Shown here: one piece after another, positions 2,624 through 2,697 of the stretch
Layout: every line of letters starts with the position of its first letter
Position numbering within the stretch: the stretch's first letter is position 1
Virus record (IMG/VR): IMGVR_UViG_2541047776_000006
Source of the DNA: a virus
Taxonomy: Duplodnaviria > Heunggongvirae > Uroviricota > Caudoviricetes
Strand: one strand, 5' to 3'
Length of the DNA: 18,553 bases
Position numbers and translations under genes: made by a program
The notes under the pieces: generated by a model
Told to the model about the DNA's origin: nothing
The model's input: the letters and a program-made list of their open reading frames with translations, nothing else
The model's database searches: none

Positions 2624-2697
2624 CCTCAAAAATGACCACACAACTGACCACACATTTCGTTGAAGCCCTACGAACAACGACGAACAATAACAAACAA
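2624..2697. repeat. Sub-terminal imperfect direct repeat, left copy; contains tandem TGACCACACA-AC-TGACCACACA
   Basis: About 75 bp (CCTCAAAAATGACCACACAACTGACCACACATTTCGTTGAAG...ACGAACAACGACGAACA...) closely similar to 12175-12250 in the same orientation, with an identical 25-bp stretch. Candidate integrase arm-type sites. Confidence 0.7.

Follow-up and report, generated by a model that had tools for sequence, protein, structure and literature searches.

Co-oriented repeats inside both ends of a thiM-site chromosomal island are probably the arm modules of a P4-type attachment site

Two co-oriented repeats of about 75 bp lie just inside the two ends of an island in IMG/VR virus record IMGVR_UViG_2541047776_000006 (18,553 nucleotides; we call this whole stretch the window), and their position raises the question of what one long, imperfect sequence does at both termini of the same element. 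A sequence-only reading of this DNA had proposed either arm-type binding sites for an integrase or an excisionase or a duplicated promoter region, and had regarded the symmetric placement of the copies as unusual. Here, we address the question through the identity of the island, its ends, the internal structure of the repeats, and the fate of that structure in related elements.

The window is identical to sequence of E. coli Es_ST80_L1_NDM_10_2017, and the RefSeq annotation gives the gene order: yegX, thiD and thiM on one side, then a 9.8-kb insert, then rcnR, rcnA, rcnB, yehA, yehB and yehC on the other. Judged by its sequence, the insert is a Gram-negative phage-inducible chromosomal island (PICI) of the EcCI224 family, because its gene set is the Gram-negative PICI set. 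It carries int, alpA, a primase with adjoining iterons, and packaging-related genes (Table 1); its 9.8 kb compares with about 10-15 kb for the class; and it occupies a specific att site unused by prophages, with the core and the location of EcCI224. That PICI was placed between frmR (rcnR) and thiM, with att AGAAATACCCGTAT, by Fillol-Salom et al. (2018, Table S1), and the published core is the same 14-mer as the core in the window.

Table 1. Features of the window, numbered from its first letter (strand given as + or -; a point means neither)
Feature	Position	Strand	Evidence or remark
attL core ATACGGGTATTTCT	2551..2564	.	exact 14-bp direct repeat at both island ends
IHF-like site (tentative) TATCAACTGATAA	2578..2590	-	one mismatch to WATCAANNNNTTR; between core and left doubled motif; read from sequence
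Left (int-distal, P') putative arm module, whole 74-bp copy	2624..2697	-	repeat search, alignment, BLAST
P' doubled arm motif (putative), two 12-bp units TGTGTGGTCAGT and TGTGTGGTCATT	2631..2654	-	centre 86 bp from core centre
P' phased array TTGTTTGTTA, TTGTTCGTCG, TTGTTCGTAG	2668..2697	-	3 x 10 bp
Region of the decayed ClpP/capsid gene, HEPN gene included	4286-6001		frameshifted, shortened pseudogene beside the HEPN gene
HEPN-domain gene	5288-6001		low GC
GGTGAACAGTT iterons, direct and inverted cluster	6181-6393		immediately beside primase gene
D5-type primase	6392-8224		adjoins GGTGAACAGTT iterons
alpA (Phage_AlpA family), candidate for excision and for PICI activation	9749..9973	-	Pfam PF05930 E=4e-15
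DUF6387 gene	10077-10931		overlaps int stop codon; between int and alpA
int, tyrosine integrase with N-terminal Arm-DNA-bind_3	10928..12148	-	Pfam PF13356 E=9.8e-18, PF00589 E=9.2e-17
Right (int-proximal, P) putative arm module, whole 76-bp copy	12175..12250	-	repeat search, alignment, BLAST
P doubled arm motif (putative), TGTGTGGTCAGT x2	12184..12207	-	centre 146 bp from core centre; 35 nt upstream of int start
P phased array TTGTTTGCTG, CTGTTCGTCG, TTGTTTGCCG	12221..12250	-	3 x 10 bp
attR core ATACGGGTATTTCT	12336..12349	.	exact 14-bp direct repeat at both island ends

The integrase starts with GTG at 12148 on the minus strand, and its residues 8-95 match the solved N-terminal domains of CP4-like and phage integrases (PDB 3JTZ/3RMP and 3JU0). 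It shares 22% identity over about 400 residues with P4 Int (BLASTP, E=1e-14), with the domains in a like order. The role of AlpA in PICI induction is taken from the PICI literature. The DUF6387 gene is present in the E. coli thiM-site islands and absent from the Salmonella and smrA-site relatives, in which alpA follows directly after int. The iteron cluster is presumably the replication origin of the island; as an identity for the terminal repeats the iterons were rejected, since they lie elsewhere and have a different sequence. In relatives the fusion of a ClpP-like protease and a major capsid protein is intact (1.9 kb in the E. coli island L002), and in the island of the window the capsid function is probably lost. 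Other genes of the insert are icd-like or encode DUF4222 and DUF1441 proteins.

An empty site reconstructed with one copy of the core matches other E. coli genomes along 316 nt at 100% identity; in 4728 of 5426 E. coli genomes the site is uninterrupted. Where within the core the strands are exchanged is indicated by E. coli A65EC (L092, NZ_CP182331), which holds a second copy of an SMS-3-5-type cf-PICI at a secondary site between yphF and yphG (~5160-20300). Its integrase protein is identical to that of SMS-3-5, both modules lie inside the element, and the core at this site is imperfect (ATTACGGGT/TGTTCT). The junctions read ATT/ACGGGT/ATTTCT and ATA/CGGGT/TGTTCT, which places strand exchange, probably, within ACGGGT (2554-2559 in the window). 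This copy is an off-target integration, and the modules moved with the element to the secondary site.

The core lies in the middle of the aptamer of the thiM TPP riboswitch: in an empty-site locus (L119), RefSeq annotates the riboswitch at 205-301 and the core occupies 252-265. The insertion splits the riboswitch (2504-2564 and 12350-12385 in the window), leaving the 3' half with thiMD at attL and the 5' half with the promoter at attR. Rfam scores the riboswitch in the window at 33 bits against a threshold of 54, from the 3' half alone, so the island does not rebuild the missing half. Both thiM and thiD are intact in the island-bearing genomes examined. A promoter-like TTTACA-17-TACCAT, running from 12439 to 12411 on the minus strand, points through the 5' half of the riboswitch, attR and the P arm into int, whose start lies about 255 nt downstream; it is probably the native thiM promoter. 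Because this orphaned promoter faces int, the integrase gene may be driven by a host promoter while the island is integrated, as has been described for ICEKp1 (PMC13023037). Published att tables label the site 'frmR-thiM' or 'rcnR_thiM' with no mention of the riboswitch, and in the main texts of the literature searched we found neither thiM as a target of PICIs or prophages nor the riboswitch as its site.

The two repeats themselves had been described by eye as about 75 bp long, roughly four-fifths identical with an identical run of 25 nt, 60-90 bp inside the att cores, and 27 bp upstream of int in the case of the right copy. Measurement bears this description out closely. Gapped local alignment and BLAST return exactly the same coordinates, with 85.5% identity over 76 columns, nine mismatches and one 2-nt gap (E=4.7e-20 within the window); the 25-nt run is present in both copies; the copies begin 59 bp and 85 bp inside the cores; and 26 nt separate the right copy from the int start. 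An ungapped repeat search pairs 2628-2697 with 12181-12250 (70 nt, 86% identity). Within each copy, TGACCACACA occurs twice at a 12-bp period (2633 and 2645, 12186 and 12198, all on the + strand). The window holds no fifth copy of TGACCACACA with up to one mismatch, and the arms hold no extra half-site even at two mismatches.

Each repeat is composite, made of a doubled 12-bp motif and a 10-bp-phased TTGTTYG array. Neither this structure nor the position of the core in the riboswitch had been remarked on in the sequence-only reading. Read in the int sense (minus strand), the module runs TTGTTTGYTR, YTGTTCGTCG and TTGTTYGYNG, then 13 nt, two TGTGTGGTCAGT units and TTTTGAGG. In the excised circle the order would be a module (array, then doubled motif), 68 bp that include TATCAACTGATAA, the core, 128 bp of A/T-rich sequence, the other module, 35 nt, and the int start. 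TATCAACTGATAA could tentatively be taken for an IHF-like site; two Xenorhabdus relatives (L020 and L046) carry a perfect WATCAANNNNTTR at the equivalent position.

Absence of the repeats from related elements with the same integrase would have counted against the sequence-only reading, and they are present there. The right arm was found in 76 of 5426 complete E. coli genomes (1.4%), and all 76 hold at least two matching places. The cargo of these E. coli islands is diverse, comprising the ClpP-capsid fusion in L002, a RepA helicase with a lambda-like capsid in L003, and a full capsid-forming module in L004 (SMS-3-5); the int end and both modules are kept in all three despite these differences. 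Integrase relatives further afield (40-74% identity) were gathered by protein search and genome scans; scanning genome contigs with the single integrase protein returned no relatives, and an alignment-based scan recovered them. Of 41 relatives, 27 have a tandem with a 12-bp period, perfect or with one mismatch, in the 150 bp that precede int, versus 0.26% of random windows from the same loci. Among tandems at other periods upstream of int in these 41 relatives, none was found at 9, 11, 13 or 14 bp and two at 10 bp, so that 12 bp is the sole enriched period.

The sequence of the unit changes from lineage to lineage (GTGTAGTCAGTG, GGTGTAGTTAAT, TGTATAAACA, CGGTGTATCAAT, GGGGGTACAT, GTGTGTAGCA and GCGTGTAACCA are examples). 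Wherever the far end was recovered (L008, L020, L027, L031, L040, L041, L046 and the sister lineage L122), a second co-oriented pair with the identical unit lies beside the second core, and the motif is likewise matched on both arms in the thiM family and in P4. The pair centres lie 81-88 bp (distal) and 145-158 bp (proximal) from the core in the relatives with a clean core (L008, L020, L027, L031 and L040; L041, L046 and L092 were left out of the distances because automatic core detection chose an unrelated shared string), and 86 bp and 136-146 bp from it in the thiM family. For about 15 relatives the full 10-kb flank was available and contained no distal pair; these islands may be longer than the flank. 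Salmonella elements at the thiM core, with integrases 67-74% identical to that of the window, carry TGTG[T/A/C]GGTCA, the variant base being constant across all copies in an arm; these data cover the proximal arm, as the contigs (P0002-P0005, P0019) end at or just after int and the islands of L088 and L089 exceed the 10-kb flank. This integrase type occurred in no E. coli genome scanned. A motif scan of IMG/VR returned E. coli-type arms and otherwise unrelated matches, and the invariance of the doubled motif among these IMG/VR copies is partly circular, since they were retrieved by the motif. The doubled motif behaves as arm sites do: it differs from the core, flanks the crossover on either side within about 50-200 bp, is kept within an integrase lineage, and changes between lineages on both arms together.

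The closest known layout is that of satellite P4. Its record (NC_001609; Pierson & Kahn 1987) marks two co-oriented tandems of 12-bp units as 'attP arm sequence repeat'. One stands 16 bp upstream of int and the other on the far side of the core, the centre distances being 134 bp (proximal) and 75 bp. As in P4, two co-oriented 12-bp tandem pairs flank the core in the window (86/146 bp here versus 75/134 bp in P4), the proximal pair stands just upstream of int, and the domain architecture of the integrase is shared. The two systems differ in the half-site, TGTGTGGTCAGT here and TGGGGGCAYANN in P4; in the extra single copies of P4 (an inverted one that covers the int start and another within int), which the island of the window lacks; and in the extent of the homology, as the P4 arms share only the pair whereas the homology in the window spans about 75 bp. 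P4 Int is just 22% identical to the integrase of the window and yet has the same layout, which argues that the architecture is old.

A similar arrangement has been reported for helper-embedded PICIs (HE-PICIs), in which two co-oriented copies of the doubled motif tgTGTATTGCantgTGTATTGCa lie 81+/-2 and 132+/-2 bp to either side of the attP centre; this motif was reported as absent from other PICIs (PMC10111431). The island of the window is like the HE-PICIs in having a tandem motif of 12-bp period at fixed distances in a PICI with int and alpA, and unlike them in motif sequence and attB. In our comparison the architecture, with a lineage-specific sequence, extends to PICIs at the thiM, smrA and fis sites and is not confined to these, and one Kluyvera element (L044) carries the exact HE-PICI motif. 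On the sequences compared, the doubled-motif architecture is general, and the half-site sequence alone is lineage-specific. Beyond satellites, the arm sites of lambda, P2/186, HP1 and KplE1 are short non-core repeats on both arms, bound by the N-terminal domain of Int with the assistance of IHF and an excisionase; P2 reportedly has two direct repeats per arm. Compared with these phages the integrase families and the site numbers differ, and binding was established by experiment there and is proposed from sequence here. In KplE1 the arm sites overlap the int promoter, which results in autoregulation (PMC2951348).

Taking these comparisons together, we consider it likely that the left and right repeats are the P' and P arm modules of attP in a PICI with a P4-type integrase, and that the doubled pairs are arm-type Int sites. 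The feature is real but ordinary, a member of the P4-type class of attP arm sites, and the symmetric placement that had seemed unusual is the standard layout of such an attP. The earlier proposal of integrase or excisionase arm-type sites is well supported, given the arm domain of Int and the parallels with P4, the HE-PICIs and the relatives; as to the protein, AlpA keeps a small chance of being the binder.

From the observed sequence, geometry, conservation and covariation we infer how the proteins could be distributed over the motifs. At each of the four co-oriented TGTGTGGTCAGT half-sites, two per arm, one member of an integrase tetramer would bind through its N-terminal domain. With the catalytic C-terminal domains on the core, the arms would fold back onto the crossover region to form the intasome. 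The TTGTTYG units may be sites for a bending accessory protein, AlpA being the obvious candidate, or may constitute a phased intrinsic bend that helps this folding; together, the IHF-like site and the TTGT arrays would bend the arms back to the core, and AlpA would give directionality. Any promoter upstream of int would have the P-arm pair between itself and the start codon, and Int bound at this pair would probably repress int too. For P4, a passage of PMC7286903 that cites Piazzolla 2006 describes both Int and Vis as repressors of Pint.

The role of the array deserves separate consideration. Three TTGTTYG units per arm, at a 10-bp period and hence one helical turn apart, stand beside the doubled motif. 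Over the whole window TTGTTYG is not enriched (10 found versus 8.4 expected). Over a 60-nt stretch just ahead of the proximal pair in 41 relatives, TTGT in the int sense reaches 1.61 versus 0.24 per 60 nt (about 7-fold) and 0.20 in antisense, and the spacings between TTGTs across relatives peak at 10, 20 and 30 bp. In the sister lineage L122, whose integrase is 67% identical, the array stretch is 61% identical from arm to arm, and both arms still have TTGT at 10-bp intervals, in one and the same register. Among P' arms, the extension has 5 variable positions out of 60 and the core-side spacer 13 out of 45. Family-wide phasing, the register in L122 and the low variation in P' suggest that the array is a second functional component and not a neutral remnant; the stretch of about 45 bp probably binds an accessory protein or bends DNA. 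One could hold instead that, apart from the 24-bp doubled motif, the shared sequence (about 45 bp and TTTTGAGG) is functionless, the trace of gene conversion between the arms or of an old duplication. In distant relatives the similarity between arms is indeed confined to the pair of about 24 bp, and sequence does seem to pass between arms. Two haplotypes of the P arm exist in E. coli at 12221-12235, the Salmonella-like GTTTGCCGAG of the window and GTTCGTAGAG (L003/L004), which is nearly identical to the P' arm. Different elements also have polymorphisms of their arms in common, a pattern suggestive of gene conversion from one arm to the other or of recombination among elements. A functionless extension would hardly keep its 10-bp register on both arms at 61% identity, remain in phase throughout the family, or vary less than the neighbouring spacer in P', and we leave this possibility a minor share. 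The array resembles the X1-X1.5-X2 sites of lambda Xis and the Apl array of 186 in consisting of direct repeats one helical turn apart beside Int arm sites, and is unlike them in that the candidate array is present on both arms, in the window and in L122. To our knowledge, excisionase arrays are confined to one arm in the known systems (lambda, P2, L5); a two-arm array is thus atypical for an excisionase, which weakens the assignment of the TTGT array to AlpA. Scanning the window revealed no TTGTTYG cluster near alpA or its downstream operon, so that an internal promoter lends no support to AlpA binding either. Sites for recombination directionality factors are described, in a section of PMC7498355, as typically direct repeats one helical turn apart.

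A related possibility exchanges the partners, with the doubled motif bound by AlpA, acting as a Xis/Vis-like protein, or by another protein of the island or host, and the arm domain of Int recognising something else, such as the TTGT units. Int and AlpA co-vary across the compared relatives, AlpA tracks the motif about as well as Int, and comparing the identity of the Int N-domain with that of AlpA did not separate the candidate binders; P4 Vis, moreover, reportedly binds two boxes between int and the core, in the same general region as the proximal pair. The authors of the HE-PICI study themselves leave Int, AlpA or an unknown protein as candidates (PMC10111431). Four co-oriented half-sites on two arms, however, fit a tetramer with a dedicated arm-binding domain. 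Excisionase sites normally lie on one arm, and in P4 the arm motif is present only around attP. The late-promoter region from vis to sid, which we take to be the Vis-regulated region, has no copy of it; this absence argues for Int, and against the excisionase, as the binder. We therefore regard the exchange of partners as unlikely. The other half of the original proposal, a duplicated promoter whose right copy drives int and whose left copy drives thiMD outward from the island, would agree with the minus-strand orientation of both copies, the right one preceding int and the left one preceding attL and thiM, and a replacement would make sense where the insertion severs thiMD from its promoter and half of its riboswitch. 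It finds little in the sequence to sustain it. A consensus scan (-35/-10 hexamers, 16-18 bp spacing, which weak promoters would escape) gave no sigma-70-like site in 2400-3000, and the sole site in 12050-12500 lies outside the island (12439-12411), so that no sigma-70 consensus is present in or beside either copy; what the arms have in common in relatives is reduced to the doubled motif, a sequence unlike a promoter; and the same architecture recurs at fis and other attBs that need no replacement of a promoter. A promoter function is accordingly very improbable. Least credible of all is a reading of the repeats as structured RNA or as protein-coding sequence. RefSeq does annotate, in some genomes, a hypothetical ORF of 89 aa (2500-2769, +) over the left copy, but it runs from the thiM leader across attL as a host-island hybrid, is unannotated in L002 and L004, and is probably spurious, while the right copy has the 2-nt indel and lies in no ORF of at least 50 aa. 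Folding z-scores on both strands of both copies range from -1.6 to +1.8, and Rfam has no match at the repeats at E<=1.

Identifying the repeats as arm modules fixes the ends of the island and the anatomy of its attP, and accounts for a conspicuous repeat. A doubled 12-bp motif about 85 and 140 bp from the core, often preceded by a TTGT array, emerges as a family-wide signature of P4-type satellite integrases. It offers a means of locating the ends of islands and their crossover sites, and a guide to the design of minimal substrates for attP. The composite module and its generality across the family amount to a modest extension of the P4-type class. An integrase that targets the middle of a TPP riboswitch aptamer also raises the question of how thiMD and int are expressed in the 1.4% of E. 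coli that carry the island. It is tempting to join all these strands. With the riboswitch destroyed and thiMD detached from its promoter, the left module lies between the island and thiMD, and the right one between the orphaned thiM promoter and int; the composite of array and doubled Int site could then be an undescribed general two-arm scaffold of P4-type satellite integrases, the modules of the thiM lineage being near-identical through gene conversion, and its occupancy by Int or AlpA could couple the state of the island to the expression of the thiamine genes and the integrase. As a whole, this combination is speculative, and we doubt that every part of it will hold.

Among the relatives, the copy number of the 12-bp unit varies: one Salmonella element has three in tandem (L089, 9900-9950) and one Shewanella element has four, where close relatives have two (the loci compared here include L037, 9910-9960, and L022, L026 and L039). 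Two Shewanella fis-site islands (L033 and L034) carry a further doubled motif, partly degenerate and accompanied by a terminator, some 300 bp ahead of int. This extra motif stands on the upstream side of the int-proximal core and at 233-234 bp from the proximal pair, a spacing that reproduces the attP geometry, and it has the look of a P' arm left behind by an earlier element. In the window, a hairpin with T-runs on both strands (CCCATATTCGTGGG, 2830-2843) lies between the last minus-strand island gene and the left arm module; it is likely a bidirectional terminator, in which case it would curb transcription running on from the island genes into thiMD. Just inside the same module, a block running from GATCATCCACCAGCTTCATRGCGGATAGC to AAAATGATAACGGT (2723-2780 in the window, ~30480-30520 in L122) matches 552 E. 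coli genomes and is common to PICIs with differing integrases and att sites, and it could be a cis site or a landmark where the packaging operon ends.
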